DNA of 64,000 nucleotides from an uncultured Alphaproteobacteria bacterium (GCA_963782885.1 CAWALL010000037.1:4745-68744); one strand, 5' to 3'. Shown: positions 4,470 through 52,619, numbered from the stretch's first letter. The notes: generated by a model not told the origin, from the letters alone. Program-made: numbers and translations.

Positions 4470-4539
4470 GGCGCGCCAAGACCCGCCGCTACACAGACCG
4501 CAAAAACTCGCAGCACCCAAGCAGACGAGGAGGCAGTTC

Positions 4540-5430
4540 TTGATGCGCGTAGCGATCTCACTGACGACGATCTCTCTCGTCATGGGCCTGTGCGGGCCCT
4601 GTCTCGCCGCCCAGGCCGACTGGCAGGCAGTAGAGAAAGCGATCGGCGTGGCCGGCTCGATGCAGCCCGGCGATGTCTACAAGATCAGCCTGCCGCGCAG
4701 CGATCTTAAGGTCACGGCCGACGGGGTGGCGGTGAAGCCCGCGCTGGCGCTGGGCTCGTGGCTCGCCTTCAAGCAGGTCGAGAACAAGACCATGGTGGTG
4801 GGCGATCTCGTGCTGACCGACGCCGAGGTCAACCCGGTCATGACCAAGCTCGAGGAGGGCGGCATCCAGATCACCGCCCTGCATCACCATCTCGACAATC
4901 TGAAGCCAGACGTCATGTTCATGCACGTCGGTGGCGAAGGCGACGCAGCCGGCCTTGCCGAGGCGTTACGCGCCGGGCTGGCGCTTAGCAAGACGCCGCT
5001 CGGCGGATCGCCGGGCAAACCGGCTGCCGAGAAGTTGGCTCTCGATTCCGCCGGGCTCGACAAGATCATGGGTTACCAGGGCAAGGCCGGTGGCGGTGTC
5101 TACCATTTCACCATTCCGCGCTCCGAAGAGGTCACGGAGGCAGGGATGGCGATCCCGCCGGCCATGGGCACCGCCACTGCCATCAACTTCCAGCCGACCG
5201 GCGACGGCAAGGCGGCGATCACCGGCGACTTCGTGATGACCGCCAACGAGGTGAACCCGGTGATCCGTGCCCTGCGGGAGCACAGCATCAAGGTCGAAGC
5301 CCTGCACAACCACATGCTCTCCGAGGAACCGCGCCTGTTCTTCATGCATTTCTGGGCCAATGCCGACGCGCAGACCCTCGCGCGCGGTCTGCGCGCCGCG
5401 CTCGACCAGATGAACGTCGCGAGGAGCTGA
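4540..5430 (+). CDS. DUF1259 (LppY/LpqO-like) secreted protein
   Basis: 296 aa with an N-terminal signal peptide (ISLTTISLVMGLCGPCLAAQA). Internal duplication carries the DUF1259 hallmark motifs (EVNPVMTKLEEGGIQITALHHHL...MFMH and EVNPVIRALREHSIKVEALHNHM...FFMH). GAGGAGG RBS upstream. Start is TTG 4540 or ATG 4543. Confidence 0.8.
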   Translation: MMRVAISLTTISLVMGLCGPCLAAQADWQAVEKAIGVAGSMQPGDVYKISLPRSDLKVTADGVAVKPALALGSWLAFKQVENKTMVVGDLVLTDAEVNPVMTKLEEGGIQITALHHHLDNLKPDVMFMHVGGEGDAAGLAEALRAGLALSKTPLGGSPGKPAAEKLALDSAGLDKIMGYQGKAGGGVYHFTIPRSEEVTEAGMAIPPAMGTATAINFQPTGDGKAAITGDFVMTANEVNPVIRALREHSIKVEALHNHMLSEEPRLFFMHFWANADAQTLARGLRAALDQMNVARS

Positions 5431-5433
5431 TCC

Positions 5434-6110
5434 GTGCGACAGTATCGCGGTGACATGCCGGGGCGCTCCGCGTCCAGCAGACCGACGGACGGCGCGACGC
5501 AGGCGGTGAAGGCGGGCGGCTTGCCACGCTGTCGCGAGCTGCTCGCCGTGACCTTCACGCTCGCGGGGCTCTTCGCCTGGGGCCTGCCTGCCGCGGCGGG
5601 CCCGGCGCAGCCGCTCGTGCTGGAGCAGAAGATCCCGCTTGGCGAGGTTCGCGGGCGGATCGACCACCTCGCGATCGATCTCGCCCGGCAACGGCTGTTC
5701 GTGGCCGAGCTCGGCAACAACAGCCTGGGCGTCGTGGATCTTGCTGCCGGCAAAGTCCTGCGCGGGATCGGCGGGCTCGAAGAGCCGCAGGGTGTTGTCT
5801 ATGACCCCGCCTCCGACACGGTCTTTGTGGCCGATGCCGGCGATGGCTTGGTTCATCGCTTCAAGGGGCCCGAGCTCGCCCCGCTCAACTCCATCGAGCT
5901 CGGCGACGATGCCGACAATGTCCGCCTCGCGCCCGGGGACGGACAGGTGGTGGTCGGCTACGGCGAGGGCGGCCTTGCCTTGATCTCGGCCGCATCCGGC
6001 AAGATCGACGGGAAGATCCCTCTGCCCGGGCATCCCGAGGCCTTCGCGCTCGAGCGCAATGGGCCGCGGATCTTCGTCAATGTGCCGGACGCGCGCCAGA
6101 TCGTCGACGA
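5434..6110 (+). pseudogene. YncE-like beta-propeller repeat protein, 3'-truncated
   Basis: Signal-peptide-like N-terminus, then beta-propeller repeats (LFVAELGNNSLGVVDLAAGKVL, VVYDPASDTVFVADAGDGLVHRF, VVVGYGEGGLALISAASGKI, RIFVNVPDARQIV). Recognisable sequence stops near 6110. The ORF then runs on to 6459 as Arg-rich nonsense, antisense to the next gene. Confidence 0.5.
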
Positions 6111-6187
6111 TCAGAACGACGATCGCCTTCTCGCTCGAGATTCTGCGAACGCGCTCCATTGCCTAGTGTCGGCCTGCGGTTCCCAGT

Positions 6188-7384
6188 TCAATCGCCGCCG
6201 CGGGAGGGATTGGCGGGCGCAGGCATGGCCGCGTAGGAGTAGGAGCGGCCCTTCCAGACCACCCGGCCCGTCCTCCGCCGTCGCACGCTGTCGAAGGCGA
6301 TCACGGCGCCCGCCGTGTACCCGAGCGGAAACAGCAGCCCGTACCAGAGCGGGATGCGGAAGTGGGCTGCGCCTGCAACATGGAAGGCGAGGGCGATCGC
6401 CGAGGCGCCGACGGCGAGCGCGAGGGCGATGCGGTCGAGGGGATCGGCGGCGCCGGTGAGCAGGCTCGCAACCGGGATCAGGATCAGGCCCCAGGCCAAG
6501 GTCAGACCGAGCCCCGCGGTCGCGATCGTCGCCCTGCGCCCGCCTAGAAGATCAATCAGGTTCTTGGCGATGCCGGCGCGAAGGGAGTGCCAACCCGAAT
6601 ACATCCGGGTTTCGAGCAGTCCGTCGCCGTCCCACATCGCGACCCTGCCTCCCGCCCGCTTGACCGTGCGGGCGAGTTCGGTGTCTTCGCTGATCGCGCT
6701 CGCGACCGCGCTGTGGCCCGCGACCGCCTCGTACGCGGTCCGCCGCACCAGCATGAACATGCCGGTCGCGGCGACCTCGTCGACGTCTGGCTGCTCGGTC
6801 TTCCTGAGGTCCTGGACGAACGACAGCAGGTAGAAGCCGCAGGGCATGATCAGACGTTCGGCGAAGGTCACCAGAATCTGAGCCGGCGCGAGCGACAGAA
6901 GGTCGAGCCGTTCCGTCTCCGCGGCGGCGACCGCGCGCCGCAGCAGGTCCTCACGAACGGTGACGTCGGCATCGAGGAAGCAGAGCCACTCGGGGTCGCC
7001 GCGCAGGCTGCGCGCGCCCACCCAACATGCATGGCCCTTGCCGGTCCAGCCGCTCGGAAGCGGCGGCACGCGAACCACAGACAGCCGGCGGTCGCGCTCG
7101 GCCGTCGCGCGTGCGATCGCGCCGGTGGCGTCTTCGGATTCGTCGTCGACCAAGCTGACCTGGAGCCGGTCGCTCGGATAGCGCTGGTGCAGCACGCCAT
7201 CGAGGCACGCGGCAACCTTCGCCTGCTCGTTCCTTGCCGGAATGATGATCGCGACCTCGGGCGCTCGTGGCAAGGCGACTTCGGAGCGAGAGTCAAGGCG
7301 GCGGACCACGCGGGCCTGCCGCACCGCGCGCACCATGAGGACGAACACGGCAAGAAACAGAGCCAGCGAAAGTATGGGTACCAT
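6188..7384 (-). CDS. Family 2 glycosyltransferase, membrane-anchored
   Basis: Start placed at internal ATG 7384 (MVPILSLALFLAVFVLMV TM helix). GT-A motifs: IIIPARNE, LVDDESED, SGWTGKGHAC, FLDADV, ISEDTELA. C-terminal TM helices. Confidence 0.8.
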   Translation of the reverse strand: MVPILSLALFLAVFVLMVRAVRQARVVRRLDSRSEVALPRAPEVAIIIPARNEQAKVAACLDGVLHQRYPSDRLQVSLVDDESEDATGAIARATAERDRRLSVVRVPPLPSGWTGKGHACWVGARSLRGDPEWLCFLDADVTVREDLLRRAVAAAETERLDLLSLAPAQILVTFAERLIMPCGFYLLSFVQDLRKTEQPDVDEVAATGMFMLVRRTAYEAVAGHSAVASAISEDTELARTVKRAGGRVAMWDGDGLLETRMYSGWHSLRAGIAKNLIDLLGGRRATIATAGLGLTLAWGLILIPVASLLTGAADPLDRIALALAVGASAIALAFHVAGAAHFRIPLWYGLLFPLGYTAGAVIAFDSVRRRRTGRVVWKGRSYSYAAMPAPANPSRGGD

Positions 7385-7587
7385 TCGCACTCGCCATCCG
7401 CGCTCGTTCCGGCACCTTGGTCGCGTAGTTAACCGCCGGGTCCGCCGCAGGTTCCGCTGCCGTTGCGGCTGCCGATCGTCGCCATGCGCAGTGCTCGGGC
7501 GGTCCGGCAGAAGCACGTTGCGGCGACGGAACTTTCGCGCGACGGCGATGGTTAGGTTGTCGGGCTGTTTCGGATTGGGAGAGAACG

Positions 7588-7809
7588 ATGTGCTGGCGGT
7601 CTGCCTCTGAATATCACCTCTATGCGGGCGTCAGTTCCAAGCCCGTGCGCACCATCTCGAAGCCCGCGCGTTCCCTGGTGGAGGTGCTGCGCGATCTGTT
7701 CCGGCCGCGCCGGTCGCGGGTGGTGCCGGCCCAGGTGGTGCCGTTCCCGGCCGGTCGCGTGGCCGGCACCGGGAAAGCGGTCGATCGCAAAGGCCCGGAG
7801 GCGGCCTGA
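7588..7809 (+). CDS. Hypothetical small protein (73 aa or shorter)
   Basis: Only support is strong third-position G/C bias in this frame, inside an otherwise empty ~540-bp gap. No recognisable domain. Confidence 0.3.
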   Translation: MCWRSASEYHLYAGVSSKPVRTISKPARSLVEVLRDLFRPRRSRVVPAQVVPFPAGRVAGTGKAVDRKGPEAA

Positions 7810-7923
7810 ACCGCGCTTCAGCCCGGCTCGGCAGCAACGACGAAAGATTGTTCTCGCGGGCGCACCTGCGCCGCTGGGATCATAGCCTGACCGGAGCGCG
7901 GCGCCCTCCCGCGCCGTCGGTCA

Positions 7924-8751
7924 TCAGAGAGCGGGCGCGGTCAGGGCGTCGGCTCCGACCTGCCGGCGCAGCCAGTCGAGCCATAGCTCCATACCCTGAC
8001 CGCTGGTCGCCGAGAGCTGCAGGGACGCGATCCGGGGATTGACCCGGCGGGCGTACGCGAGACAGCGCACGGGGTCGAAGTCGACGTAGGACAGCAGGTC
8101 GATCTTGTTCAGAACCATCAGCCCCGCGGTCTTGAACATGTGCGGGTACTTCAGCGGCTTGTCCTCGCCTTCGGTCACCGACAGGATCACGACCCTGGCG
8201 CGCTCGCCGAGATCGAACAGAGCGGGGCAGACCAGGTTGCCGACGTTCTCGATCATGACCACCGAGTTCAGGGGCGGTTCCAACTGCTTCAGCGCGCTGG
8301 CCAGCATCTCGGCATCCAGATGACAGCCGGTGCCGGTGTTGACCTGGACGACCCGGCAGCCGGTCGCGCGGATGCGCTCGGCATCGACCAGGGTCTCCTG
8401 ATCGCCCTCGATCACGCTGATCGGTAGGTCGGGGCCGAGCGCGCGGATCGTGCGCTCGAGCAGCGTCGTCTTGCCTGCGCCCGGTGAGCTCATCAGGTTC
8501 AGCGCCAGAATCCCCCGGCCCTCGAGCCAGCCGCGGTTGCGCTCGGCCAGTCGGTCGTTCTTGGCCAGCACCGCCTGCTCGAGCGCCACCGTGGTGCCGT
8601 GATGATGAGGATGCGCGTGCGCTTGATCGTGCGCATCATGGTGATGGTCGTGGTGGTGATGCTCATGGGCGCCGATCGCCCGGCGCTCGCCGTCGGCCAG
8701 ATCGGTCAGGGTCGGATGGGCGTGATCTGAGCAGCCGCAGGTCGTGCACAT
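7924..8751 (-). CDS. hypB: Hydrogenase nickel incorporation GTPase HypB
   Basis: Start MCTTCGC. His-rich tract HEHHHHDHHHDAHDQAHAHPHHHG. P-loop SSPGAGKTT. ENVGNLVCP and NKIDL motifs. Its ATG overlaps the hypA stop codon (TGATG). Confidence 0.95.
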   Translation of the reverse strand: MCTTCGCSDHAHPTLTDLADGERRAIGAHEHHHHDHHHDAHDQAHAHPHHHGTTVALEQAVLAKNDRLAERNRGWLEGRGILALNLMSSPGAGKTTLLERTIRALGPDLPISVIEGDQETLVDAERIRATGCRVVQVNTGTGCHLDAEMLASALKQLEPPLNSVVMIENVGNLVCPALFDLGERARVVILSVTEGEDKPLKYPHMFKTAGLMVLNKIDLLSYVDFDPVRCLAYARRVNPRIASLQLSATSGQGMELWLDWLRRQVGADALTAPAL

Positions 8752-9080
8752 CACAACAGCTCCATCTCTTTGATCCTGAGCTCCTCGCCGGCGAGCCACT
8801 GGAGGTCGTGCGAACCGCAGCCGCATGCGGAAAAAAGATCGCTCAGCTCCAGCTCAGCGCCGCACGCGTGGCAGCGGGCGCGGCCGCCAATATCGAGGAT
8901 CTCGAGCTCGGCGCCGGCCAGCGGCGTGCCTTCGGTACAGAGCTCGAAGCAGAAGCGCAGCGCGTCCGGCATCACGCAGGTGAGCCGGCCGATCTCCAAC
9001 GTCACGCGGCCGACCCGGGCATCCCCCGCCCGTGCCGAGCATGCCTCGACGATGCTGCTTGCGAGGCTGAACTCATGCAT
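8751..9080 (-). CDS. hypA: Hydrogenase maturation nickel metallochaperone HypA
   Basis: 109 aa. MHEFSLA N-terminus and zinc site CHACG...CGCGS. Confidence 0.95.
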   Translation of the reverse strand: MHEFSLASSIVEACSARAGDARVGRVTLEIGRLTCVMPDALRFCFELCTEGTPLAGAELEILDIGGRARCHACGAELELSDLFSACGCGSHDLQWLAGEELRIKEMELL

Positions 9081-9110
9081 GGGCCGCTCGGGAGGCTGTC
9101 GGCGGGGTCA

Positions 9111-10202
9111 TCAGCAGATCCTCGGCAGCTGCTCGCCGACCAGCATGTCGACGATCCGCTGGCCGCCGAAGACCGTGTCCAGCAGCACGGTGCCTTTGGG
9201 TGCGTCCTGGACCTCGCCGACCACGGCCGCAGCCCGGCCGAAGGGATGTCCGCGCATCGCCGCGAGCGCGGCTTCGGCGGCGCCGGGCGGCACCACCGCG
9301 ACGAGCTTGCCCTCGTTGGCGAGGTAGAGCGGGTCCAGGCCCAGGATCTCGCACATGCCCTTGACCTCCTCCCGGATCGGCAGCGCCCGCTCGTCGATCC
9401 GCATGCCGACGTCCGCAGCTTGTGCGAACTCGTTGACCACGGTCGCGAGCCCGCCGCGGGTCGCATCGCGCAGGCAGCGGACCTCGGGGCAGGCATCCAG
9501 CAGCGCGTCGATCAGCCCGTTGAGCGGCTGGCAGTCGCTCTCGATTTCAGCTTCGAGCGCAAGGTCGCCGCGGGCGTTCAGCACGGCCGCCCCGTGATCG
9601 CCGAGGAAGCCGTTGACCAGGATGACGTCGCCCGGCCGCGCGGTCGCGGGATCGAGATCGAGCCCGGCGCGGATCACGCCGAGGCCGGTCGTGTTGATGA
9701 ACAGCTTGTCGGCGGCGCCGCGCTCGACGACCTTGGTGTCGCCGGCGATCACCCGGACGCCGGCAGCCTCGGCGGCAGCGCGCATCGAGGCGACCACGCG
9801 CCGAAGCGTCGCCACGTCCAGCCCCTCTTCCAGGATCACGGCGCAGCTCAGGAAGAGCGGCCGCGCGCCGCCGACCGCGAGGTCGTTGACCGTGCCGTTG
9901 ACCGCGAGCATGCCGATGTCGGCGCCCGGAAAGAACAGGGGATCGACGACGAAGGAATCGGTCGTGAACGCCAGGCGATCGCCAACAGTCAGGAGTTCGG
10001 CGAGCGGCAGCCGCGCCTGATCGTCCAAAGCCGCGAGGATCTGGTTGTCGAAGCTGCCGACGAAGACGTCGTCGATCAGATCGCGCATCGCCTTGCCGCC
10101 GCCGCCGTGGGCGAGCGTGATCCGGGTATCGCGCAGCTTGCCGCTCCGCCGGTGGATGCCGCCGCCGCTGTCCGCCGAGACCGGCAGGGCGCGGACGCTC
10201 AT
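9111..10202 (-). CDS. hypE: Hydrogenase expression/formation protein HypE
   Basis: Start at internal ATG 10202 (MSVRAL...), which overlaps the hypD stop (ATGA). AIR-synthase-like fold motifs (LAHGGGG, TTDSFVV, NDLAV) and the C-terminal PRIC. Confidence 0.95.
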   Translation of the reverse strand: MSVRALPVSADSGGGIHRRSGKLRDTRITLAHGGGGKAMRDLIDDVFVGSFDNQILAALDDQARLPLAELLTVGDRLAFTTDSFVVDPLFFPGADIGMLAVNGTVNDLAVGGARPLFLSCAVILEEGLDVATLRRVVASMRAAAEAAGVRVIAGDTKVVERGAADKLFINTTGLGVIRAGLDLDPATARPGDVILVNGFLGDHGAAVLNARGDLALEAEIESDCQPLNGLIDALLDACPEVRCLRDATRGGLATVVNEFAQAADVGMRIDERALPIREEVKGMCEILGLDPLYLANEGKLVAVVPPGAAEAALAAMRGHPFGRAAAVVGEVQDAPKGTVLLDTVFGGQRIVDMLVGEQLPRIC

Positions 10203-11365
10203 CCGGCCGCGCTCGCGCGCGTCGGCCCGGAGCGCGCGCGCAGCCGCTCCGCGAGCTGCACGCCGCCGTAGTTGTAATAGGCGGCGCAGGCGCCTTCCGA
10301 CGATACCATGAGCGCCCCGAGCGGCGTCTCGGGCGTGCAGGCGCTGCCGAACACCTTGCACTGCCAGGGCTTGATCACGCCCTTGAGGACCTCGCCGCAC
10401 TGGCAGGATTTCGGATCGGCGATCTTGAGGTTCGGCACCGAGAACTTGCGCTCGGCATCGAAGGCGGCGTAGGCCTCGCGGATCCGCACCCCCGAATGGT
10501 CGATCGAGCCGAGCCCCCGCCACTCGAAGAACTCGCGCAGCTCGAAGACCTTCTGGACCGCCTCGAGCGCCGGGATGTTGCCCTGCTCGGGCACGACTCG
10601 CTGGTACTGGTTCTCGACCTCGCACCGCCCCTCGGCGATCTGCTTCAGGAGCATCCAGACCGACTGCAGTATGTCGAGCGGCTCGAAGCCCGCGACCACC
10701 AGAGGCTTCTTGTAATGCCCCGAGATGAACTCGTAGGGCGCGGTTCCGATCACGATGCTGACGTGGCCCGGCCCGACGAAGCCGTCGAGCGTGAGCTCGG
10801 GCGAGTCAAGGATCGCCTTGATCGTCGGGATGATCGTGATGTGATTGCAGAACAAGGAAAAATTCCGAACGCCCGTGCGCGCGGCCTCGAGCACGGTGAT
10901 CGCGGTGCTCGGCATGGTCGTCTCGAAGCCCAGTCCGAAAAAGACGACCTCCTTGTCCGGATGGCGCCTGGCGATCGCGAGCGCGTCGAGCGGCGAATAG
11001 ACCATGCGCACGTCGGCGCCGTCGGCCTTCGCCTGGAGCAGGCTTTTTTTTGAACCAGGGATGCGCATGGCGTCGCCGAAGGTCGTGAAGATTACGCTCG
11101 GGTGTTCGGCCAGCGCCACGCAGTCGTCGACCCGGCCCATCGGCAGCACGCAGACCGGACAGCCCGGCCCGTGCACGAACTCGATCTCGGCCGGCAGCAT
11201 GGTCTCCAGGCCGTACTTGAAGATCGAATGGGTGTGGCCGCCGCAGACCTCCATCAGCTGCAGAGGCCGCTGGCGGCAGGTCTCGATCCGGCCGACCAGG
11301 GCCTCGATCCGCCGGAGCAGCTTGCGTGCCTTCTCCGGGTCGCGGAATTCGTCGACGTACTTCAT
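10199..11365 (-). CDS. hypD: Hydrogenase formation protein HypD
   Basis: 388 aa. Motifs CGGHTHS, GPGCPVC, GFETT, PGHVS and the C-terminal CxxC cluster. Confidence 0.95.
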   Translation of the reverse strand: MKYVDEFRDPEKARKLLRRIEALVGRIETCRQRPLQLMEVCGGHTHSIFKYGLETMLPAEIEFVHGPGCPVCVLPMGRVDDCVALAEHPSVIFTTFGDAMRIPGSKKSLLQAKADGADVRMVYSPLDALAIARRHPDKEVVFFGLGFETTMPSTAITVLEAARTGVRNFSLFCNHITIIPTIKAILDSPELTLDGFVGPGHVSIVIGTAPYEFISGHYKKPLVVAGFEPLDILQSVWMLLKQIAEGRCEVENQYQRVVPEQGNIPALEAVQKVFELREFFEWRGLGSIDHSGVRIREAYAAFDAERKFSVPNLKIADPKSCQCGEVLKGVIKPWQCKVFGSACTPETPLGALMVSSEGACAAYYNYGGVQLAERLRARSGPTRASAAG

Positions 11366-12054
11366 GCCGGTTGCTCCCTGCCGAGGTTACCCCGGTCGTC
11401 CGCGAGCAGCGTGTGCACCAGATCCCAGATGATGTGATAGGTAACGACGTGCACCTCCTGGACGCGGTGGATGCTGTCGGTGCGCACCACGAGACAGTGA
11501 TCGAGGTCGGGGCTCGCCGCCATCTTGCCGCCATCGCCGCCGGCGAGCCCGATGGTCGTGAGCCCCATCGCCTTGGCCCGTGCGTAGGCTGCGAGCAGGT
11601 TCGCGGAGTTTCCGCTCGTGGAAAAACCGATCAGGCCGTCGCCCTCGCGGGCGTGCGCGATCACCTGGCGGACGAAGATGTGCTCGAAGCTGACGTCGTT
11701 GCCGACCGCGGTCAGCATCGCGACGTCGGAGGTAAGGTTGATCGCGGCGAGCGCCGGCCGGCCGGCCGTGATCGGGTGCAGGAACTCGACCGCGAAATGC
11801 GCGGCATCGCAGCTCGAGCCGCCGTTGCCCATCGCGAACATGCGGCCGTTGCATCGGTAGACCTCGGCGATCGCGCGCGCGGCGTCGACTAATACTTGCG
11901 CGTTCTGTTCGAAAAACGCCCGCTTGACCTCGACGCTGTGGCCGGCTTTCTGGCGCACGGATTCGAGCAGCGCCGCGCCCTCTTTGGCCGGGTCCTTGTG
12001 GCCGCCGTGGAGAAAGGGGTAGAGCTGGCGCAGCTCGTCGCGTGGCTCGGCCAT
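11362..12054 (-). CDS. SIS-domain (GmhA / phosphoheptose-isomerase-like) protein embedded in hyp operon
   Basis: Start at internal ATG 12054 (MAEPRDEL...). SIS motifs GNGGSSCDAAHF and FSTSGNSANL. Its stop overlaps the hypD ATG (ATGA), and its start lies 2 nt after the hypC stop. Confidence 0.85.
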   Translation of the reverse strand: MAEPRDELRQLYPFLHGGHKDPAKEGAALLESVRQKAGHSVEVKRAFFEQNAQVLVDAARAIAEVYRCNGRMFAMGNGGSSCDAAHFAVEFLHPITAGRPALAAINLTSDVAMLTAVGNDVSFEHIFVRQVIAHAREGDGLIGFSTSGNSANLLAAYARAKAMGLTTIGLAGGDGGKMAASPDLDHCLVVRTDSIHRVQEVHVVTYHIIWDLVHTLLADDRGNLGREQPA

Positions 12055-12056
12055 GA

Positions 12057-12335
12057 TCAGGCGTCCTGGGCCTGCATGGCTTCCAGCTCCTGCTGCATCT
12101 CGCCGAGCTCGGCCAGCACCGCCAGCGTCTTTGCGGCCTCCTCCTCGTCGATCCGGCTCATCGCAAAGCCGACGTGGACCAGCACCCAGTCGCCGACGCA
12201 GGCCTCGATCGGGTGCTGGTCGTCGATCACGCAGTGCAGGTTGATCTCGCGCCGGACGCCGGAGACGCTGACGATGCCGCGGCTGTTCTCGGGATCGCTG
12301 ATCGCGACGATCTGGCCCGGGATTCCTAGACACAT
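12057..12335 (-). CDS. hypC: Hydrogenase assembly chaperone HypC/HupF
   Basis: 92 aa starting MCLGIPGQI (conserved N-terminal Cys). Its start overlaps the hypF 3' end by 10 nt. Confidence 0.95.
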   Translation of the reverse strand: MCLGIPGQIVAISDPENSRGIVSVSGVRREINLHCVIDDQHPIEACVGDWVLVHVGFAMSRIDEEEAAKTLAVLAELGEMQQELEAMQAQDA

Positions 12336-14731
12336 GTCAGCGCCTCCCGATCGGTTCGTGGCATCTGCGCCCGCGCCGCGGCGACCGCCGCCTGACCCAG
12401 CGAAAGACCGCCGTCGCCCGCCGGCACCAGGCGGTGGCTGAGCACGGTCAGGCCGCGCGCCCGCAACCCTTCGCTGACCCGCTCGAGCAGCAGCCGGTTC
12501 TGGAACACGCCGCCGGACAGCGCCACGGGCTGGGCAGGCCCATCGCTCAGAGCCCCTACCAAGTCCAAGATTGTATCTGCCAGCCCCAGATGGAAGCGCG
12601 CGGCCATCACCGGGACCGGCGTGCCCCGTGCGAGGTCGGCGAGCAGCGCCTGCCACATCGGCGCAGGATTGAGAACGCTCTGCCCGACCGCGCGCTCGAT
12701 TGCCAACAGGTAGCCACTGCCCGCGGCGTCCAGCGCCGCGGGATCGATGCAAGCCTCGAGCTCGAGCGCGGCTTGGCCCTCGTAGCTCGCCTGCCCGCGG
12801 CAGATGCCGAGCGCCGCGGCGACCGCGTCGAACAGCCGGCCGCAGGAGCTGGAGAGCGGGCAGTTCAGGCCCTTGGCCAGCATCGCATCGAGGGTGGCGA
12901 GCGGCCGAGCCCGCAGCCAGGCAGCGAGCTCCAGGCGGCCGTGCTCACGAACGAAGCGCTCCCAGCCGAACGCTTGTCGAAGATGAGCATAGGTGCTGCG
13001 CCAGGGTTCACGGATCGCCTGGGCGCCGCCCAGCATCGGCACCGGCCGGAAATGTCCGACGCGCCTGAAGCCGCAATACTCAGCCCGGAGAAACTCGCCG
13101 CCCCAGATCGTGCCGTCCTCGCCATAGCCCAGGCCATCCAGGGCGACGCCCAGCACCGCTCGGGCGCCGAGCGGCACGTCGTTCTCCGCGAGGCAGGCGG
13201 CGATGTGGGCGTGGTGGTGCTGGACGTCGACGAGCTCGAGCCCGGCCGCCTCGGCGATCTGACGGCCGAGCTTGCTCGAGAGATAGTCCGGGTGCCGGTC
13301 GACCACGACGAGCTCCGGTTCGTGCTCGAGGAGCCCGCGGTAGAGGGCGAGGCTGGCGCGATAATCGGCGAAAGTCGCGGCGTCCTCGAGATCGCCCATG
13401 TGCTGGGACAGGGTCGCGCGGCCATCCTGGACGAGGCAGAAGGTGTTCTTGAGCTCGCCGCCCATCGCGAGCAGCGGGGGTGCGCCAGCGAAGCCCTCGG
13501 GCAGCGCGAGCGGCGCCGGCGCATAGCCGCGGGCGCGCCGCAGCAGGCGCGGCCCGCGGTCCATGACTCGGACCAGCGAATCGTCCAGGCGGTTGACGAT
13601 CGCGCGATCGTGCATCAGCCAGTGGTCGGCGATGCCGGACAGCCTGGCGCGCGCAACCTCGTTGTCGGTGCACTGAGGTTCTTCGGAACGATTGCCGCTG
13701 GTCAGCACGATCGGCCGGTCGAGGCCCTCCAGCAGCAGGTAGTGGAGCGGCGTGTAGGGCAGCATGAAACCCAGCGTGCGCTGACCGGGGGCCACGTCCG
13801 GGGCAACCAGCTCCGGTCCGCACGCGTCGAGGACCACGATCGGCGCCGCGGCGCTCTTGAGGAGCGCTCGCTCCTCCGGGCTGACGCGGCAGTAGCGCTC
13901 GATCACCTCCAGCTCGCGCGCCATCAGCGCGACCGGCTTGTCGTAGCGGCGCTTGCGCGCCCGCAGGCGGGCGATGGCCTCGGCGTCGGTCGCATCGGCC
14001 GCGAGGTGGAAGCCGCCGACGCCCTTGATCGCGACGATCTCGCCCGCCTCGAGCAACGCGCGGGCCGCCCCGATGGGGTCGGCACTGGACGCGGCCGCAC
14101 CCTCCAGCCAGAGCTGCGGCCCGCAGACCGGACAGGCGTTGGGCTGGGCGTGGAAGCGGCGATCGCCCGGGTCGTCGTATTCGGCCTGACAGACCCGGCA
14201 CATCCCGAACTCGGCCATGCTGGTGCGCGCCCGGTCGTAGGGGATGGCGCGGACGATCGAGAGCCGCGGGCCGCAATGGGTGCAGTTGGTGAAGGCATAG
14301 CGATGGCGCCGGTCCTCCCGGTCACGTACTTCCGCAAGACAGGCGGGACAGGTCGCGGCATCTGGCACAACCCCGGTCCGGACTGGGCCGGCGTGGCTCG
14401 GCAGAATTCGAAATCCCGCCGGCGACGCCTCGTCGATGGCCAGGATTTCCAGGGCGTCAATGCGGGCGAGCGGCGGCGCCTCGGCCCCCAGGCGCCGGAC
14501 GAACCGCCGGCGCGCGGCGGCAGGACCCCAGATCCGGATCAGCACGCCCTCGGCGTCGTTCCGGACCTCGCCGGCGAGGCCGCAGTCCCTGGCCAGGCGC
14601 CAGGCGTGCGGCCGGAAACCCACGCCCTGAACCAGCCCGCGAACGCGGATCGCCTCGCCCGGCCGCTCGATCGGCTGCGGGGCGCCTGTCGGCTGGCGCG
14701 CTTCGAGGGCGATCGCCAAGATCGGCCTCAA
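12326..14731 (-). CDS. hypF: Carbamoyltransferase HypF
   Basis: Acylphosphatase domain (RVRGLVQGVGFRP). Two zinc-finger pairs (CPACLAEV...CTHCGPR and CRVCQAEY...CPVCGP). YrdC-like and Kae1-like domains. Start proposed at TTG 14731 because it overlaps the stop of the preceding small ORF (TTGA). The upstream in-frame ORF extension is Arg-rich and implausible. Confidence 0.9.
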   Translation of the reverse strand: MRPILAIALEARQPTGAPQPIERPGEAIRVRGLVQGVGFRPHAWRLARDCGLAGEVRNDAEGVLIRIWGPAAARRRFVRRLGAEAPPLARIDALEILAIDEASPAGFRILPSHAGPVRTGVVPDAATCPACLAEVRDREDRRHRYAFTNCTHCGPRLSIVRAIPYDRARTSMAEFGMCRVCQAEYDDPGDRRFHAQPNACPVCGPQLWLEGAAASSADPIGAARALLEAGEIVAIKGVGGFHLAADATDAEAIARLRARKRRYDKPVALMARELEVIERYCRVSPEERALLKSAAAPIVVLDACGPELVAPDVAPGQRTLGFMLPYTPLHYLLLEGLDRPIVLTSGNRSEEPQCTDNEVARARLSGIADHWLMHDRAIVNRLDDSLVRVMDRGPRLLRRARGYAPAPLALPEGFAGAPPLLAMGGELKNTFCLVQDGRATLSQHMGDLEDAATFADYRASLALYRGLLEHEPELVVVDRHPDYLSSKLGRQIAEAAGLELVDVQHHHAHIAACLAENDVPLGARAVLGVALDGLGYGEDGTIWGGEFLRAEYCGFRRVGHFRPVPMLGGAQAIREPWRSTYAHLRQAFGWERFVREHGRLELAAWLRARPLATLDAMLAKGLNCPLSSSCGRLFDAVAAALGICRGQASYEGQAALELEACIDPAALDAAGSGYLLAIERAVGQSVLNPAPMWQALLADLARGTPVPVMAARFHLGLADTILDLVGALSDGPAQPVALSGGVFQNRLLLERVSEGLRARGLTVLSHRLVPAGDGGLSLGQAAVAAARAQMPRTDREALTCV

Positions 14732-14850
14732 TGCTGCTTGCGTTCGCGGCCCGCGGACATCTTGCGGTAGTGACGTTTGATGTCCTTCGCGTTGGCCCCG
14801 ACGCCGAAGGCCGCCGCCACGATCACGATGATCCCGATGATCCATCCCAT
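14728..14850 (-). CDS. 40-aa single-pass membrane protein, translationally coupled between hydrogenase protease and hypF
   Basis: MGWIIGIIVIVAAAFGVGANAKDIKRHYRKMSAGRERKQH: one TM helix plus a basic tail. High GC3. Its ATG overlaps the protease stop (TAATG) and its TGA overlaps the proposed hypF TTG. Confidence 0.55.
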   Translation of the reverse strand: MGWIIGIIVIVAAAFGVGANAKDIKRHYRKMSAGRERKQH

Positions 14851-15395
14851 TATCTCGTACCTCCCGCGAGCTGGCCGCTCGCACCCGGTCGGATCGCGGC
14901 GGCGGTTCCGGCCGGACTGGCCAGCAGGTCCGCGACCACGCCCTCGATGATCCCGAGCGCCTCGTCCACGGCCGCCGTCACCGGCGCGCTCAGGCCCATC
15001 CCGCCCTCGAACTCGTCGCCGAGCGTCTGCGGCTCGCAACCGACCAGCACGATCCGCCGGCAGCGCCCGTCCATCGCGCTCACCATACGCAAAACCGTGG
15101 CGGGGTCGAGGTCATGAGGCGCCAGCATCAACTCCTCCGCCGCCGCCTCTCCGGGCTCCGGTTCGATGAGATAGATGCTGCCGGGCACGGCACCCTGACA
15201 TGTGGTGTCCACCAGCACCGCGGCATCGTAGCGATCCAGCAGGGCGTAGGTGAGGTCGATGCCGCGGATGCCGAAATCCATCAGGTCGACGCCGGGCGGC
15301 GGCTCGCGCCCGGCGAACCGGCGTGCGACCTCGACGCCAAAGGCGTCGTCGCCTTTGAAGATATTGCCGAGGCAGGCGATCAGGAGCGCGCTCAT
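14850..15395 (-). CDS. Hydrogenase maturation endopeptidase (HyaD/HupD/HoxM family)
   Basis: 181 aa. GNIFKGDDAFG motif, with later conserved Asp/His positions (LVD, PHDLD). Its ATG overlaps the stop of the upstream reading frame (ATGA). Confidence 0.9.
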   Translation of the reverse strand: MSALLIACLGNIFKGDDAFGVEVARRFAGREPPPGVDLMDFGIRGIDLTYALLDRYDAAVLVDTTCQGAVPGSIYLIEPEPGEAAAEELMLAPHDLDPATVLRMVSAMDGRCRRIVLVGCEPQTLGDEFEGGMGLSAPVTAAVDEALGIIEGVVADLLASPAGTAAAIRPGASGQLAGGTR

Positions 15396-16182
15396 GATGC
15401 CGTCTCCGGCTCGCCGAGGACCTCGATTTCCTCGGGCGAGAAGAAAAAGCGGTGGCCGGGCATGCGCGTGAGCCCGAGTTCGCGGCCCGGATCGTCGTCG
15501 ACCGCGACCGCGACATGCAGCCGGTCCCCGAAATCGCGCTCGATCGCCTCTTCTCCATGATGTCGGCGCCGCCCTGCGGGTGCAGGCGGACGCGAGCGCC
15601 GACCTGGAGCGCGAGGCCGCGGTCGCGGACGCAGGCGAGCCTTGGTCCGTCGGGGTTGCGAAGCGTGCCGTGCATCGCCTGCCACTGGTCCGGCGTCAGC
15701 GCTTCGGTGCGCTCCAGCAGCGCCCGGGCGCGCGCGTCGACCGCCGCCATCTCGCGTTTTTCCGCGTCCGCCAGCGCGAGGATGCGCAGGCTCAGGATCT
15801 CGTCGATCTCGGTGCCATCGTACAGATCGCCCGGGCTCTCCGGCGCCACCTGCGGGTAGTCGTAGAGGATGATCGACGAGGACAGCAACGTGTCGCAGGC
15901 GTCCGGTTCACCCACCAGCACCGACCAGGTGCCGTGGTTGTTGCAGGCCGCGGCCGCCGCCGCGAGCGCAGCCGGCGGATCGAGCAGGGAGACGAACGCG
16001 CCATCGGTACCGAGGATCGTGTGGGTCAAGGCGAGCGCATGGAGCTGTGCGTCGCCGCGTTCGAGCGCCTCGGCGACCGGCGTCGTGTTGACGATGCCAA
16101 CGCTCAGTCGCAGCACCTCCTCGGTGATGCGCTCGGCCGACAGGCTGATCTCGCCGGTGACGGCCATGCTCGTGCGCAACAA
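15392..16182 (-). pseudogene. Hydrogenase-cluster-associated conserved hypothetical gene, frameshifted
   Basis: N-terminal frame (16182 downwards) gives ...SSSIILYDYPQVAPESPGDLYDGTEIDEILSLRILALADAEKRE...VRLHPQGGADIM. The plausible C-terminus EEAIERDFGDRLHVAVAVDDDPGRELGLTRMPGHRFFFSPEEIEVL is in another frame. That frame ends with an ATGA overlap onto the protease gene. The frames switch near 15550-15562. The upstream in-frame sequence DRGVFNFSGGRQLTPIR has no start codon. Confidence 0.6.
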
Positions 16183-16220
16183 CAGGCCAGAGATGCGATC
16201 ATCGGAGGCTCGAATTGGCG

Positions 16221-16520
16221 TCAGCTGGCGGCCACCGCTGAAATTGAAGACGCCGCGATCGGGCGCTGCCAGCAGCGCCCGATCGCGGGAACGCTCGCCT
16301 CGACCTCGCGCTCGACCGCCTCCTGCCAGGTCAGGTGCTGCTCGCCGCCGACCTCGAGCGCCTCGACCTCGGTGAACGGCGGCTCGCCATCATCGAGCCG
16401 GGTCGCGGAGCCGCCGCGCACCAGGCATTGGGTCTGCATCCGACAGGCATCGCCGGTCGCGCCCGAATCGGTATAGCGCTCGACGTCGGCACCCGCCACC
16501 TCGAAGTCGAGTTCAGGCAT
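16221..16520 (-). other. Coding-like fragment of uncertain identity (99-aa ORF) between response-regulator stub and hydrogenase-associated gene
   Basis: Very strong GC3 periodicity through most of the ORF (MPELDFEVAGADVERY...PPFTEVEALEV...). Periodicity decays in the last codons, where the next gene's frame takes over. It may be the 5' part of the downstream broken gene or the middle of a broken receiver domain. Confidence 0.3.
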
Positions 16521-16730
16521 GGCCGCAGCCCTGCAGGCTGTCGGGCTCGGTTCGGAGCCAGGCGAAGAAGTCGCCGATCGCCTGCCAGGCCTCCGTGCCG
16601 CCGGACAGCCCGCGCCAGTGGCGCCGGATCAGGCCGACCAGCGCAGGCCGGCGCCGCGCAGCGTGCGCACGAGCGCCTCGAGAAAGCTCGGCTCGTCGTC
16701 GATCACGAAGGCGGCCGGGTCGGAGGACAT
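16513..16730 (-). pseudogene. Response regulator receiver domain stub (frameshifted/truncated)
   Basis: ATG 16730 gives MSSDPAAFVIDDEPSFLEALVRTLRGAGLR and then a stop at 16629. A second frame continues with good GC3 (...GLSGGTEAWQAIGDFFAWLRTEPDSLQGCGHA) to 16513. No complete receiver or output domain is present. Confidence 0.5.
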
Positions 16731-17950
16731 GGCGCCCCATCGCCTATGGCTGGCAGGGTGAAGTGCAGGACGGCGCCCATCGCCGGGCCGGGCTCGGCCC
16801 AGAGCTTGCCGCCATGGGCCTCGATGATCGCGTGGCTGATCGAAAGCCCCATGCCCATGCCGTCGTGCTTGGTCGTGTAGAACGGCTGGAAGGCCCGCGC
16901 CGCACACTTGCGGTCCATGCCCGGTCCGGTGTCCGCGACGCTCAGCTGTACGCGTCGGGTCCGCAGCGGCTGCGCCCGGATCGTGATCCGCCGGATGGCG
17001 CAGTCCGCGCTGCGCATCGCCTCGATCCCGTTCGCGATCAGGTTGATCAGCACCTGCCTCGATGTGGACCGCCTCGACCAGGACGGCGGGCAGGTCCGGT
17101 CCGCACTCGGCCTCGATCCGGACGTCACGGTCACGGGCTTCGGCCTCCATCAGTCGCATGGCATCGGCGATCAGGCCTGGCAGCTCGACGGCGACCGTGG
17201 GCGTGCCTTCCTTGCGCAGGAAGCTCCTGAGGTGACGCGTCATTTCGCCGGCGCAGGCCGCTGCGGCCGAGGCTTGGGACAGGGCCTCGGCCAAGCTCTT
17301 CTGGTCGCCGGAGCCGGTGCGGAGCATGCGCAGCGCCGCATCGCAGTTGAGGACGATCGTGCCGAGCGGCTGGTTCAGGTCGTGGGCCAAGCAGGAGGCC
17401 AGGGCGCCGACCGTACCAAGTCGGGCCGCGTGCGTCAGCCGGCTCTGCAGCAGCCGGGCCTGGCGCTCGGCGCATCTGTGCGCCGAGACCATCGCGCTGC
17501 GGCAGGCCGGGGTGCCCTCAGCACCGGCGACCCGGACGCTGCCCAAACGGACGTGCACCGGCCAGCCGCTCCGGGTCCGGACCCGCAGCTCCTGGCTGAG
17601 GCGGCCGTCGCCCTCCTGCAGTTCGCCCAGGTGGCGGGCGAACAGGTCCCGGTCGTCGCGCACGACCCAGCGGCCGAATGGGCCGCCGATCAGCCGCTCC
17701 CGCGGCCAGTCCAGCATCGCGGCGCCGGTCCGGTTGATGTCGCCGATGCTGCCTCAAGCATCCAACAGAAGATCGCCGACGGCGCTAGATCGTAGAGGTC
17801 GCGGTAGTACGCCAACGCCTGCTTACGCGCCTGCTCTGGCGCGACGGTCCTCGAGGTCCGCTCGCAGGCGTGATCCGGCGAGTTCTGACCACGGTCCGGG
17901 CGCCCCAGGCCCTCGCCGCCGCATTCTTTCCACGGCAGGACTCGTCGCAT
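16703..17950 (-). pseudogene. PAS-domain sensor histidine kinase, multiply disrupted
   Basis: Four pieces, in order. (1) PAS start YRDLYDLAPSAIF, then a frame change near 17768-17775. (2) LLDA, an in-frame TGA (17754-17756), then GSIGDINRTGAAMLDWPRERLIG. (3) H-box SCLAHDLNQPLG. (4) A 1-nt insertion near 17057 separates ...LVEAVHIE from QVLINLIANGIEAM...DTGPGM...GMGMGLSIS (N, G1 and G2 boxes). Confidence 0.75.
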
Positions 17951-18349
17951 CGCCTCCCCGGGCAGCTCCCGCAGCAGCGGAAAACGTCAGTCCGGCACGC
18001 TTCGCTCCCAGGGTGCCGGTCATACCGGATCACCTCCGCGTGAGGTCGCTGTGCTGCCCGGGGGGCCGTGACGCGATTGCCGCCGCCGCGCGTCGATCTA
18101 GGTTGCGATTATCGGCCGATGACGTCGAATCGCCGCCCCGGAACTGCTTGCTGCGCCGCCGCGTTGAGTGACCTCACCTAGGCAGGCCCCAGCGATGACG
18201 TCTCGGGTGCGGTTTTTCCCGATCGTGGTGGGCACCGGTCGCGACGGACCATTGCCCACTCGGAGGAGCGGGCCTGTGACCCTCAACCGGCTCTGCAGTA
18301 CCGCCGCCCGCCGTGCTCGCCGGCCCGTCGGCGCCCGATCGAGCGATCG

Positions 18350-19369
18350 ATGACCACGCTCGTCACCGGTGCGACCGGGTTCATCGGATCGGCGGTCGCT
18401 CGCGTGCTGATTGCGCGCGGGCACGAAGTCCGCGCTTTGGTGCGTCCGGGCAGCAACCGGTCCAACCTGGAGTGCCTGCCGCTCGAAGTCATCGAAGGCG
18501 ATCTGCGCGATTCCACCTCGCTCCGCACCGCCATGACGGGCTGCCGGGCGGTGTTTCACGTCGCCGCCGACTATCGCCTGTGGGTCCCGGATCCCGCGTC
18601 GCTGTATGCAACCAACGTCGCGGGTACTGAGACGCTGCTGCGGGTGGCGGAGGCCCAGGGCGTCGAGCGCTTCGTCTATACCAGCAGCGTCGGCGCCCTG
18701 GGCCTCGATCCGACCGGCCGGGCGGCCGACGAGGACACGCCGGTCCGGATGTCCGAGATCATCGGCCATTATCATCGGTCCAAGCTCCTCGGCGAGAACC
18801 TGGTCCGGCAATTCGCCGCGCGTCTGCCGGTGGTGATCGTCAACCCGTCGTTTCCGGTCGGGCCGCGCGACATCAAGCCGACGCCGACCGGCCTCACGAT
18901 CCTCAAGGCCGCCGCCGGCCGGATGCCCGCCTATCTCGATACTGGTATCAATCTCGTCCACGTGGACGACGTGGCGGAGGGCCATTACCTGGCCTTCGAG
19001 AATGGCCGTGTGGGCAGGAGCTACATCCTGGGCGGCTGGGACCTGACGCTACGGGAGCTGCTGCTGCTGGTGGCGCAGGTCTGCGGGCGCACGTCGCGGC
19101 TGATGCGGCTGCCCCACGGGGCGGCCATGGCCATGGCATACGCCTTCGAGGGCTTCGCGCGCCTGAGTGGACGGGCACCGCTCGCGACCCGCGACGAGGT
19201 TCAACTCGCGCGCCGGCCCATGTACTTCTCCTCAGGGCGCGCGGAGCGAGAACTGGGCTACCGTGCCCGGCCGGCCGAGCACGCGGTCCGCGACAGCGTC
19301 GCCTGGTTCGAGGCAAACGGCTATCTGAAGCGCGGGCGCTACCAGCCGTCTGCCCTCGGACGCGCCTGA
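18350..19369 (+). CDS. hpnA: Hopanoid-associated sugar epimerase HpnA (NAD-dependent epimerase/dehydratase)
   Basis: 339 aa. Rossmann motif TGATGFIGSAV. HVAADYRLW and YxxxK (YHRSK). Directly precedes hpnI-hpnJ-hpnK. Confidence 0.8.
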   Translation: MTTLVTGATGFIGSAVARVLIARGHEVRALVRPGSNRSNLECLPLEVIEGDLRDSTSLRTAMTGCRAVFHVAADYRLWVPDPASLYATNVAGTETLLRVAEAQGVERFVYTSSVGALGLDPTGRAADEDTPVRMSEIIGHYHRSKLLGENLVRQFAARLPVVIVNPSFPVGPRDIKPTPTGLTILKAAAGRMPAYLDTGINLVHVDDVAEGHYLAFENGRVGRSYILGGWDLTLRELLLLVAQVCGRTSRLMRLPHGAAMAMAYAFEGFARLSGRAPLATRDEVQLARRPMYFSSGRAERELGYRARPAEHAVRDSVAWFEANGYLKRGRYQPSALGRA

Positions 19370-19393
19370 GAGCGCGATGCGGGCGCGGCGGCG

Positions 19394-20548
19394 ATGATTG
19401 GAGCGGCGCTGCTGGGGTATGGATTGGAGGCCGCTGCGCTCAGCTACGTCGGGGTCGCCGACTGGCGCCTGCGCCGGTTCGCGCGCGCGACGCCGCCGCG
19501 CCGGGACTTCGCGCCCGCCGTCAGCCTCCTGAAGCCGTTGTGCGGGCTCGAGCCGGAGCTGTACGAGAACCTGCGCTCCTATTTCGAACTCGACTATCCG
19601 ACGGTCCAGATCGTGTTCGGCGTGCAGGATCCTGGCGATCCGGCGCGGCAGGTGGCCGAGCGGCTCAGGACAGAATTCCCGCAGTCCGAGGTCGCGATCG
19701 TGGTCGACCGTCGCCAGCACGGCAGCAATCCGAAATTGAGCAACCTCATCAACATGATGGCGGCGGCGCGCCACGACATTCTGGTGCTTTCCGACAGCGA
19801 CATCAAAGTCCCGCCCGACTACCTCGCGCGCGTGGTGGCGCCGCTTGAGGACCCGGGCATCGGCGCCGTGACCTGCGCCTATACGGCGCATCCCGCCACG
19901 CCGACCCTGGCCGCGCGGATGGCGTGCCTGCAGATCAACGACTGGTTCTTCCCGTCCGTCCTGGTGGCAAGCGCACTCGAGGAAGTGGACTTCTGCATGG
20001 GCTCGACGATCGCGCTCCGGCGCGACGCGCTCCGTGCGATTGGCGGCTTCCGCGCGCTACGCGACGTGCTCGCCGATGACTACGAGATTGGCCGCCGGCT
20101 GGTCGATCGCGGCTACCGCGTGGCGCTCTCGGACTGCGTGGTCGAGACCGTGGCGAGCGAACTCGACCCGAGGGCGCTCGTCCTCCACGAACTGCGCTGG
20201 GCGCGCACCATCCGGACCGTGCGACCGTTCGGATTCGCTGGCATGTGCATCACCAATACCGTCTCGATCTGCCTGCTGGCGGCACTGTCCCTGATCGGGG
20301 TCGGCATGATCGTGCCGATTGCCATGGTCGCGGCTGGTCTGCTCGCGCGCCTGATCCTACATTTTCGCATCACCTCGCGCTTCGCCGCTCCGCGGGGGGC
20401 GAGCTGGCTGCTGCCCTTTCGCGATGTCCTTTCGTTCGGCATCTGGGCTGCGAGCTTCATCGGTCGCCGGGTGACCTGGCGCGGCCAGCGTTTCTCGGTG
20501 CGCCAGGATGGCAGCCTCGTCGGAACCAAGAGCATGAAACCGTCATGA
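19394..20548 (+). CDS. hpnI: Bacteriohopanetetrol glucosamine biosynthesis glycosyltransferase HpnI (GT21-like)
   Basis: 384 aa. SLLKPLCGLEP, FGVQDPGDPA, NPKLSNL, LSDSDI motifs of the ceramide-glucosyltransferase-like family. The stop overlaps the hpnJ ATG (ATGA). Confidence 0.85.
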   Translation: MIGAALLGYGLEAAALSYVGVADWRLRRFARATPPRRDFAPAVSLLKPLCGLEPELYENLRSYFELDYPTVQIVFGVQDPGDPARQVAERLRTEFPQSEVAIVVDRRQHGSNPKLSNLINMMAAARHDILVLSDSDIKVPPDYLARVVAPLEDPGIGAVTCAYTAHPATPTLAARMACLQINDWFFPSVLVASALEEVDFCMGSTIALRRDALRAIGGFRALRDVLADDYEIGRRLVDRGYRVALSDCVVETVASELDPRALVLHELRWARTIRTVRPFGFAGMCITNTVSICLLAALSLIGVGMIVPIAMVAAGLLARLILHFRITSRFAAPRGASWLLPFRDVLSFGIWAASFIGRRVTWRGQRFSVRQDGSLVGTKSMKPS

Positions 20549-47494: not shown

Positions 47495-47497
47495 AGC

Positions 47498-49005: not shown

Positions 49006-49015
49006 GAGGACGCGC

Positions 49016-52618: not shown

Positions 52619-52619
52619 G

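Follow-up and report, generated by a model that had tools for sequence, protein, structure and literature searches.

A complete [NiFe]-hydrogenase maturation operon at a locus from which the genes of a group 1h/5 hydrogenase were deleted in an uncultured alphaproteobacterium

In the cluster of Ralstonia eutropha (Cupriavidus necator) H16 that encodes HofK and HofG, the structural genes of the hydrogenase precede conserved hypotheticals, an endopeptidase gene and a hypF-hypB set of its own. Loci of the group 1h/5 [NiFe]-hydrogenases (Hhy; high-affinity, atmospheric-H2-oxidising) in Mycobacterium smegmatis, Streptomyces and soil Acidobacteria comprise the subunit genes hhyS and hhyL, genes for a putative Fe-S protein and a HupD endopeptidase, conserved hypotheticals, the hypABCDEF genes and a gmhA-like gene (PMC5900883). 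Here, we analyzed 64,000 nt of DNA from an uncultured Alphaproteobacteria bacterium (GCA_963782885.1 CAWALL010000037.1:4745-68744; G+C, ~69%), hereafter called the window, which was read as one strand and to which alone all statements about 64 kb apply, and found a complete set of [NiFe]-hydrogenase maturation (hyp) genes next to the place from which the hydrogenase subunits are missing. The gene inventory is that of the Hhy loci named above, but the window keeps the maturation half alone, and hyp gene order differs from phylum to phylum. The likeness to the H16 cluster (PDB 5AA5) lies in the large subunit of the closest intact relative, which matches HofG over its full length; unlike that cluster, the window has no equivalents of hofK and hofG, its conserved hypotheticals are pseudogenes and the ancestral cluster of its clade includes an upstream FixL/FixJ-like two-component pair. 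Compared with the canonical HypABCDEF of Escherichia coli and Thermococcus, there are six full-length family matches with the recognised motifs conserved, but the window adds a SIS-domain gene between hypC and hypD as well as a DUF6893-like micro-open reading frame (ORF), and it has no client in cis. A well-known system has lost genes here, and we do not regard it as a system of a new kind.

The original prediction described nine intact minus-strand genes, and Pfam matches and translations agree with it: from 15395 down to 7924, the strand encodes the endopeptidase, a 40-amino-acid (aa) ORF, hypF, hypC, the SIS gene, hypD, hypE, hypA and hypB, all nine of them intact (Table 1). The tight coupling that it had noted is also borne out, with TAATG, TTGA, a 10-nt overlap, ATGA, ATGA and TGATG read from the sequence at the gene junctions, and with gaps of 2 nt between hypC and the SIS gene and of 30 nt between hypE and hypA. 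All of the genes except the 40-aa ORF (8/9) match Pfam families above the curated cut-offs and over full domain lengths, including those for the six HypA-F proteins. Specifically, the catalytic and metal-binding motifs expected from general knowledge of these families are all conserved in the translations, i.e., Cys2 of HypC; CGGHTH, GPGCPVC, GFETT and the C-terminal cysteine cluster of HypD; the C-terminal PRIC of HypE; the HHHAH motif and zinc fingers of HypF; and the CxxCGC motif and P-loop of HypB (N-terminal MCTTCGC, a His-rich stretch, GAGKT, CH and NKID) and the MHE start and CxxC...CxC zinc site of HypA. Translation of hypF probably starts from a TTG at 14722, which shares bases with the stop codon at the end of the 40-aa ORF; the alternative is an ATG at 14845. 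A public protein of 797 aa (P0001), encoded on a contig of 88,423 bp, is 100% identical to the HypF of the window. The SIS gene is typical of group 1h hyp clusters: most of the surveyed loci that have hypC or hypD place a SIS gene next to one of them. The 40-aa ORF has no Pfam or NCBIfam match of its own; its position is conserved in the clade, and its positional counterparts in three related loci (L162, L164 and L166 in our numbering) carry PF21833 (DUF6893). The endopeptidase retains GDDAFG, VLVD and APHD (read by eye, without alignment to HybD), which we take to be the metal-ligand positions of HybD, and has no substrate gene nearby.

A search of the whole 64 kb in six frames gave 0 matches to the large-subunit motifs CGxCxxxH and DPCxxCxxH, and Pfam scans of ~50 long ORFs of the window returned no hydrogenase subunit, the small-subunit families PF01058 and PF14720 occurring in no scanned ORF. 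The closest relative found, L001, is a long-read metagenome-assembled genome (MAG) of an uncultured alphaproteobacterium, and its HhyS has no tblastn match in the window either. Nucleotide identity between L001 and the window is 81.7% from hypB to 16394, 86% over 16475-16645 and 73.6% over 16644-17823. At window junction 16644/16645, L001 holds 4.65 kb without a counterpart in the window (blastn; the same result was obtained against L164). Because this closest relative carries hhyS and hhyL exactly there, the synteny comparison shows that hhyS and hhyL were deleted in this lineage, which was one of the two alternatives in the original prediction, and that most of the accessory and regulatory genes dedicated to the enzyme were either deleted with them or inactivated.

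The layout of the intact cluster was established from L001, where Pfam matches on the ORFs give the order PAS histidine kinase, LuxR/FixJ-type regulator, small subunit, large subunit, orf192 (192 aa), DUF5947, DUF6084, CH440 (our label for a conserved hypothetical of ~440 aa without a family), endopeptidase and hyp genes; this full arrangement recurs in L164 and L166. The ancestral order was PAS kinase, FixJ-like regulator, hhyS, hhyL, orf192, DUF5947, DUF6084, the 440-aa protein, endopeptidase, DUF6893, hypF, hypC, SIS, hypD, hypE, hypA and hypB. The large subunit of L001 has the signatures TSRICGICGDNH (L1) and SFDPCLPCGVH (L2), and we assign its cluster to group 1h/5 because HhyL matches the actinobacterial-type HofG of R. 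eutropha (5aa5) over its full length with 1209.7 bits, while the other solved hydrogenases reach ≤160 bits. The group 1h/5 layout that had been proposed for the window is thereby supported, and further support comes from a scan of species-representative genomes with the best-preserved piece of CH440, which gave 79 loci, all surveyed by tblastn. HhyS and HhyL were both present, as part of the core block, in 52/55 loci with ≥5.5 kb of DNA upstream of CH440, and the listed loci follow the order HhyS, HhyL, orf192, DUF5947, DUF6084, CH440 and endopeptidase, except for rearranged cases such as L064. A metagenome scan with the CH440 fragment gave nothing above 55% identity, and Pfam and NCBIfam gave no match for orf192, for the CH440 remnant of the window or for the chimeric ORF described below.

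Two further observations concern the related loci. Each of the three full clusters of the clade has the kinase and the FixJ-like (LuxR-type) regulator immediately ahead of hhyS (L001 2670-4606, L164 1029-2881 and L166 5313-7072); the pair is absent from most loci of other phyla, in which just weak response-regulator matches (26-30%) were seen. Against NF006900 (FixJ), the regulator orthologue of L001 reaches 216 bits, short of the cut-off of 255. In addition, two MAG loci lack both HhyS and HhyL over the 6-9 kb upstream, namely, L065 8393-11400 (Actinomycetes), which holds CH440, DUF5947, DUF6084 and the endopeptidase, and L025 ~6100-7400 (Acidobacteriota), which holds CH440; these may be further independent losses of hhyS and hhyL.

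The 4.65-kb deletion took the regulator from about codon 31, hhyS, hhyL, orf192 and codons 1-169 of DUF5947. Since just 2-3 nt of microhomology are common to both sides of the junction, the deletion arose by illegitimate recombination and not by the collapse of a repeat. In total, eight lesions lie at 15.4-18.0 kb, i.e., this deletion and seven smaller ones, those in the kinase having been read from DNA alignments with L001, L164 and L162 (Table 1). The accessory block of DUF5947, DUF6084, CH440 and endopeptidase is still recognisable in the correct order, three of the four being fragments or pseudogenes and the endopeptidase alone being intact. The original prediction had recognised only two-component fragments upstream of the operon: the broken pair is there, but its genes are members of the ancestral cluster, and the remnants of DUF5947, DUF6084 and CH440 had been missed. 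Instead of intact conserved hypotheticals, 15392-16644 contains the broken remnants of three Hhy accessory genes, and the ORF that set the right-hand end of the predicted region (16221-16520; 99 aa) is a chimera of 16 DUF6084 codons fused to an internal part of CH440.

Table 1. Maturation genes, gene remnants and lesions of the window
Feature	Coordinates	Strand	Remarks
hypB, nickel GTPase	7924..8751	-	PF02492 (cobW) 78.6 bits; 74% aa identity to L001; intact
hypA, nickel/zinc metallochaperone	8751..9080	-	PF01155 106 bits, full length; intact
hypE	9111..10202	-	AIRS 81 bits, AIRS_C 103 bits; intact
hypD	10199..11365	-	PF01924 523.3 bits; 92% aa identity to L001; intact
SIS-domain (gmhA-like) gene	11362..12054	-	PF13580 70.7 bits; TIGR00441 153.9 bits, below cut-off of 209; intact
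hypC	12057..12335	-	PF01455 92.8 bits; N-terminus MCLGIPG; intact
hypF, carbamoyltransferase	12326..14722	-	all five HypF domains; intact
40-aa hydrophobic ORF	14728..14850	-	between endopeptidase and hypF
Maturation endopeptidase (HupD/HycI family), Hhy-specific	14850..15395	-	PF01750 49.6 bits; TIGR00072 105 bits (cut-off 47); ORF intact
CH440 pseudogene	15392..16475	-	first 43 codons lost; three tblastn pieces in two frames
CH440 piece 1	16475-16260	-	residues 44-140, minus 25 residues (tblastn)
CH440 piece 2	16278-15553	-	residues 135-377 (tblastn)
CH440 piece 3	15550-15395	-	residues 388-439 (tblastn)
DUF6084 remnant	16473..16520	-	residues 1-16 of 215 (tblastn); ~0.73 kb lost after these
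DUF5947 remnant	16516..16644	-	residues 170-212, the last 43 codons; tblastn 88% identity, E 3e-22
Truncated FixJ-like regulator	16629..16730	-	~30 native codons and an out-of-frame tail; tblastn residues 4-30 of 207 at 16721-16641
PAS histidine kinase pseudogene	16745..17981	-	two frames, 17981-17058 and 17056-16745 (tblastn); NCBIfam kinase matches split likewise
Lesion 1, junction of 4.65-kb deletion	16644/16645		L001 coordinates 4069-8719; three-way junction alignment
Lesion 2	near 16470		~0.73-kb deletion
Lesion 3	16394		75-nt in-frame deletion (CH440)
Lesion 4	near 16278		1-nt deletion (CH440)
Lesion 5	15552/15553		28-nt deletion (CH440)
Lesion 6	17781/17780		1-nt deletion (kinase)
Lesion 7	17756-17754		in-frame TGA (kinase)
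Lesion 8	17058		extra G (kinase)

The four larger deletions (≥28 nt) are certainly real. The three 1-nt lesions, which fall in 2.6 kb of relic DNA, are probably real as well, and nanopore error is unlikely, because the indel rate of the backbone is low: window 51607-60861 (9.2 kb), aligned with the JGI metagenome contig L160 at 88% identity, shows ~1 frameshifting difference well inside a gene (ChaC), with one more near a gene start and one that is intergenic. This block (L160 1-9241) encodes MetW, a MetX-like hydrolase, chorismate mutase, an aminotransferase, prephenate dehydrogenase, a 2-oxoglutarate oxygenase, ChaC, an S4 protein and a Suv3-like helicase. Within it, the ChaC-like ORF (57549-58022) differs from L160 by a net +1 indel at ~57711, which is either a frameshift or a locally compensated difference.

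To place the window among its relatives, we collected loci by protein search with full-length HypF, which gave a small clade set at 75-82% identity; matches beyond it fell to 71% and then to ≤68%, and the named ones there are gammaproteobacterial. L001, L164 and L166 hold the full cluster, with the kinase, regulator, hhyS, hhyL, accessory genes and endopeptidase upstream of hypF. The window, L160, L162, L163 and L165 (5/8 related loci) are orphan hyp loci without hhyS and hhyL; the last four come from the JGI and ENA records 3300056996 Ga0568866_0001759, 3300081965 Ga0673031_0006635, ERZ25039549 contig_63264 and 3300056996 Ga0568866_0003758, respectively. In L162, residue 274 of the kinase is joined to residue 50 of DUF6084, and CH440 (residues 1-420, in one frame) and the endopeptidase are kept; residues 92-152 of the endopeptidase alone remain in L160 (likewise in L161) and residues 6-74 alone in L165; and in L163, an unrelated gene is followed directly by hypF. 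The endopeptidase orthologue is accordingly truncated or absent in L160, L163 and L165. Five different breakpoint patterns are seen when the window is included; each removes hhyS and hhyL and none enters hypF-hypB, and the deletions in L163 and L165 end at, or ≤~20 codons from, the start of hypF. As in ordinary bacterial pseudogene decay by deletion bias, the deletions, frameshifts and premature stop are confined to genes whose function was lost, and microhomology is minimal; unlike ordinary decay, the process halts before the hyp module in each lineage examined, exactly at the hypF start in L163.

The hyp set of the window is collinear with those of the full clusters L001 and L164 (81-82% nucleotide identity over 8.5 kb), and L160, L162 and L165 keep each of the seven hyp genes at full length. 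In L163, hypA and hypB are each split, which we put down to sequencing errors, as frameshifts are also seen in two related MAG loci, L166 and L001 (in the latter, single-base ones affect hypF and the SIS gene). Neighbour-joining on 2089 concatenated positions of the seven Hyp proteins gave the topology ((window, L160), (L165, (L164, (L001, (L162, L163))))) with bootstrap values of 86-100%. The full clusters L001 and L164 are thus nested among orphan modules, which requires at least three independent losses of hhyS and hhyL. For the window and L160, a single ancestral loss was also considered, but the constraint on CH440 of the window until recently favours independent losses. The hyp module adjoins the Suv3-like helicase in L160 only; in the window, 43 kb separate the inverted module from the orthologous helicase, so the module was relocated within the clade.

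The locus is what is left of a group 1h/5 (Hhy) [NiFe]-hydrogenase island: a 4.65-kb deletion by illegitimate recombination removed both enzyme subunits together with neighbouring genes, and seven smaller lesions inactivated the leftover Hhy-specific regulatory and accessory genes. According to the explanation that we favour, the seven cofactor-assembly genes from hypF to hypB would not be a passive relic; they would have been kept by selection, most likely because another [NiFe]-hydrogenase, with its genes beyond the window, would receive its Fe(CN)2CO-Ni cofactor from them. The endopeptidase and the 40-aa ORF would now be dispensable, and their decay would be expected next, as in the sister lineages. 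They are best read as not yet decayed, because they offer a target of just 0.67 kb and have already been lost in L160, L163 and L165. The original prediction had offered deletion of the structural genes and service to a distant hydrogenase as alternatives, but these are compatible, and clade-wide comparison suggests that the deletion of the enzyme genes and the continued retention of the hyp genes by selection are both true.

The strongest competitor, to which we assign a clearly smaller share of the probability, holds that no part of the Hhy system, not even the hyp genes, has had a function since a recent deletion, in a genome without any other [NiFe]-hydrogenase. The placement of the lesions argues against this: all eight fall in the Hhy-specific part and 0 in the 7.5 kb that begin with the endopeptidase and end with hypB, an outcome whose probability under random placement is 0.26^8 = 2e-5 with present lengths or 0.52^8 = 5e-3 with ancestral lengths. 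A functionless operon should also be a short-lived neutral state and therefore rare, but five of the eight related loci are orphan through different breakpoints, with the seven hyp genes intact in three of the four orphan relatives (L163, with its split hypA and hypB, being the fourth) and with a terminal-branch omega of 0.15-0.24. Specifically, omega, calculated over the hyp genes from parsimony ancestral codons with Nei-Gojobori counting, was 0.153 (confidence interval: 0.12-0.18) for the window and 0.174, 0.166, 0.166 and 0.239 for the orphan loci L160, L162, L163 and L165, respectively; in comparison, the full clusters L001 and L164 gave 0.213 and 0.233. Relaxed selection on the hyp genes of the window is not seen, omega being no higher than in the full clusters. 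Pairwise values for the hyp genes across all loci were 0.19-0.25, the ratio of nonsynonymous to synonymous substitution rates (dN/dS) between the Hyp proteins of the window and L001 was 0.15-0.38, and in relative-rate tests against L001 with two outgroups, the unique changes numbered 108 versus 96 and 116 versus 101 (not significant).

A contrast between decaying and maintained genes is seen in L165. Its endopeptidase remnant has lost the start codon and carries a 16-nt deletion and in-frame stops; at the 147 sites on which five intact orthologues all agree, it has 22 unique changes (15%), whereas unique changes in its hyp genes amount to 2.6% at codon position 1, 1.7% at position 2 and 7.7% at position 3. 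At least there, these counts indicate that the hyp genes stayed constrained while the neighbouring endopeptidase decayed, which a relic would not lead one to expect. To judge from these comparisons, the hypF-hypB module of the window is probably still under selection.

Several observations pull the other way and keep a relic in play. The CH440 remnant of the window is not detectably relaxed (dN/dS 0.32, the same as in intact pairs; ratio of changes at positions 1+2 to position 3, 0.44 versus 0.25-0.51), and because its point substitutions show no measurable nonsynonymous excess, the inactivation is recent, at an estimated ~1% neutral divergence. Recency alone could explain the intact hyp ORFs, and because the inactivation is recent, substitution rates in the window lineage cannot decide between a relic and a module in use. 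The endopeptidase, which is specific to the lost enzyme and expected to be useless without HhyL, is likewise intact. The integrity of hypF is in part a sampling effect, the loci having been found through full-length HypF, although the integrity of hypC-hypB is unaffected by this. No second hydrogenase is seen within the 64-kb window. Finally, no partner locus with hhyS and hhyL but without hyp genes was found among the close HhyL relatives, the two close matches being full clusters; this search for HhyL homologues is uninformative because HhyL is 83-87% identical across phyla.

If the hyp genes are indeed retained by selection, the question is which protein they serve. Retention for a client other than a hydrogenase, e.g., delivery of Fe(CN)2CO or nickel to another protein, would account for the same retention evidence as the reading that we favour, and it gains something from the five orphan loci, in which no hydrogenase partner was found within 10 kb on each side (less at contig ends). 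Nevertheless, we regard it as very improbable: the DNA visible amounts to ~20 kb per locus, hyp operons apart from structural genes are common in bacteria, and we know of no client of HypCDEF other than [NiFe]-hydrogenase. A phylum-wide survey of cyanobacteria found that hyp genes always co-occur with a hydrogenase (PMC5186783). On these last two grounds, the hyp module of the window most likely matures a hydrogenase encoded elsewhere. We give little credence to the more far-reaching proposal that a clade of soil Alphaproteobacteria repeatedly drops its sole [NiFe]-hydrogenase yet keeps a selected HypFC-SIS-DEAB set, which would point to a non-hydrogenase role for the cofactor pathway. That structural genes present in the organism were merely dropped or collapsed in the assembly is scarcely credible, even though the source is probably metagenome-assembled and the related nanopore MAG loci L001, L163 and L166 carry frameshift errors, since the junction interrupts two different genes, which have ≤3 nt in common there and no repeat to collapse on, separate deletions of ~0.73 kb, 75 nt and 28 nt are found close by, four other assemblies from different samples (JGI and ENA records) have comparable deletions with other breakpoints and the backbone shows so few frameshifting differences inside genes.

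The surroundings of the operon were also characterized. The island (7924-17981) sits between a gene for an HpnB-like glycosyltransferase (below cut-off) on one side and hpnA-hpnI-hpnJ (above the NCBIfam cut-offs) on the other, at window 6188-7516 and 18350-21966, respectively; hpnA had been named as the gene on the far side, and TIGR03466 identifies it with 452.9 bits (cut-off, 367.65). Collinearity with each relative stops at the borders of the island, and the hydrogenase/hyp island may have been inserted into a neighbourhood of hopanoid genes. A scan of 7.4-18.4 kb for promoters and terminators revealed no promoter-like site, and terminator-like sites occurred at chance level. By Pfam, the other long ORFs of the window encode transporters, hopanoid genes, leucyl-tRNA synthetase, porins and amino-acid biosynthesis genes.

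Three observations elsewhere in the window touch none of these genes. A thiamine pyrophosphate riboswitch (RF00059; 60.2 bits, gathering score 54.3) at 47401-47506 (+) lies ahead of an ATP-binding cassette (ABC) ATPase (47486-48250) and an NMT1/THI5-like binding protein (48965-49954), and the region looks like an ordinary operon for the uptake of a thiamine precursor. Two neighbouring Porin_4 ORFs are located at 34169-34963 and 35130-36284 (-), the first of which matches profile positions 115-309 only and may be truncated. The adjacent 831-aa ORFs at 58330-60825 and 60905-63400 (-) were considered as duplicates, which was ruled out by BLASTP (E = 0.28); the former encodes the Suv3-like helicase, and the latter has no Pfam or NCBIfam match.

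Taken together, a complete 1h-type hyp operon with its dedicated endopeptidase can persist where the enzyme itself has been deleted. Surveys of genomes and metagenomes often deduce the capacity to oxidise hydrogen from marker genes, and those that count hyp genes would overcall atmospheric-H2 oxidisers. In one alphaproteobacterial clade, hhyS and hhyL were lost at least three times by different deletions that always spared the maturation module, which remained under purifying selection. The FixL/FixJ-like pair upstream of hhyS in the intact clusters is a candidate for a dedicated regulator of the high-affinity group 1h hydrogenase. The prediction that follows is that such organisms would either mature a second hydrogenase with the borrowed 1h-type hyp set or put the Hyp machinery to some other use.

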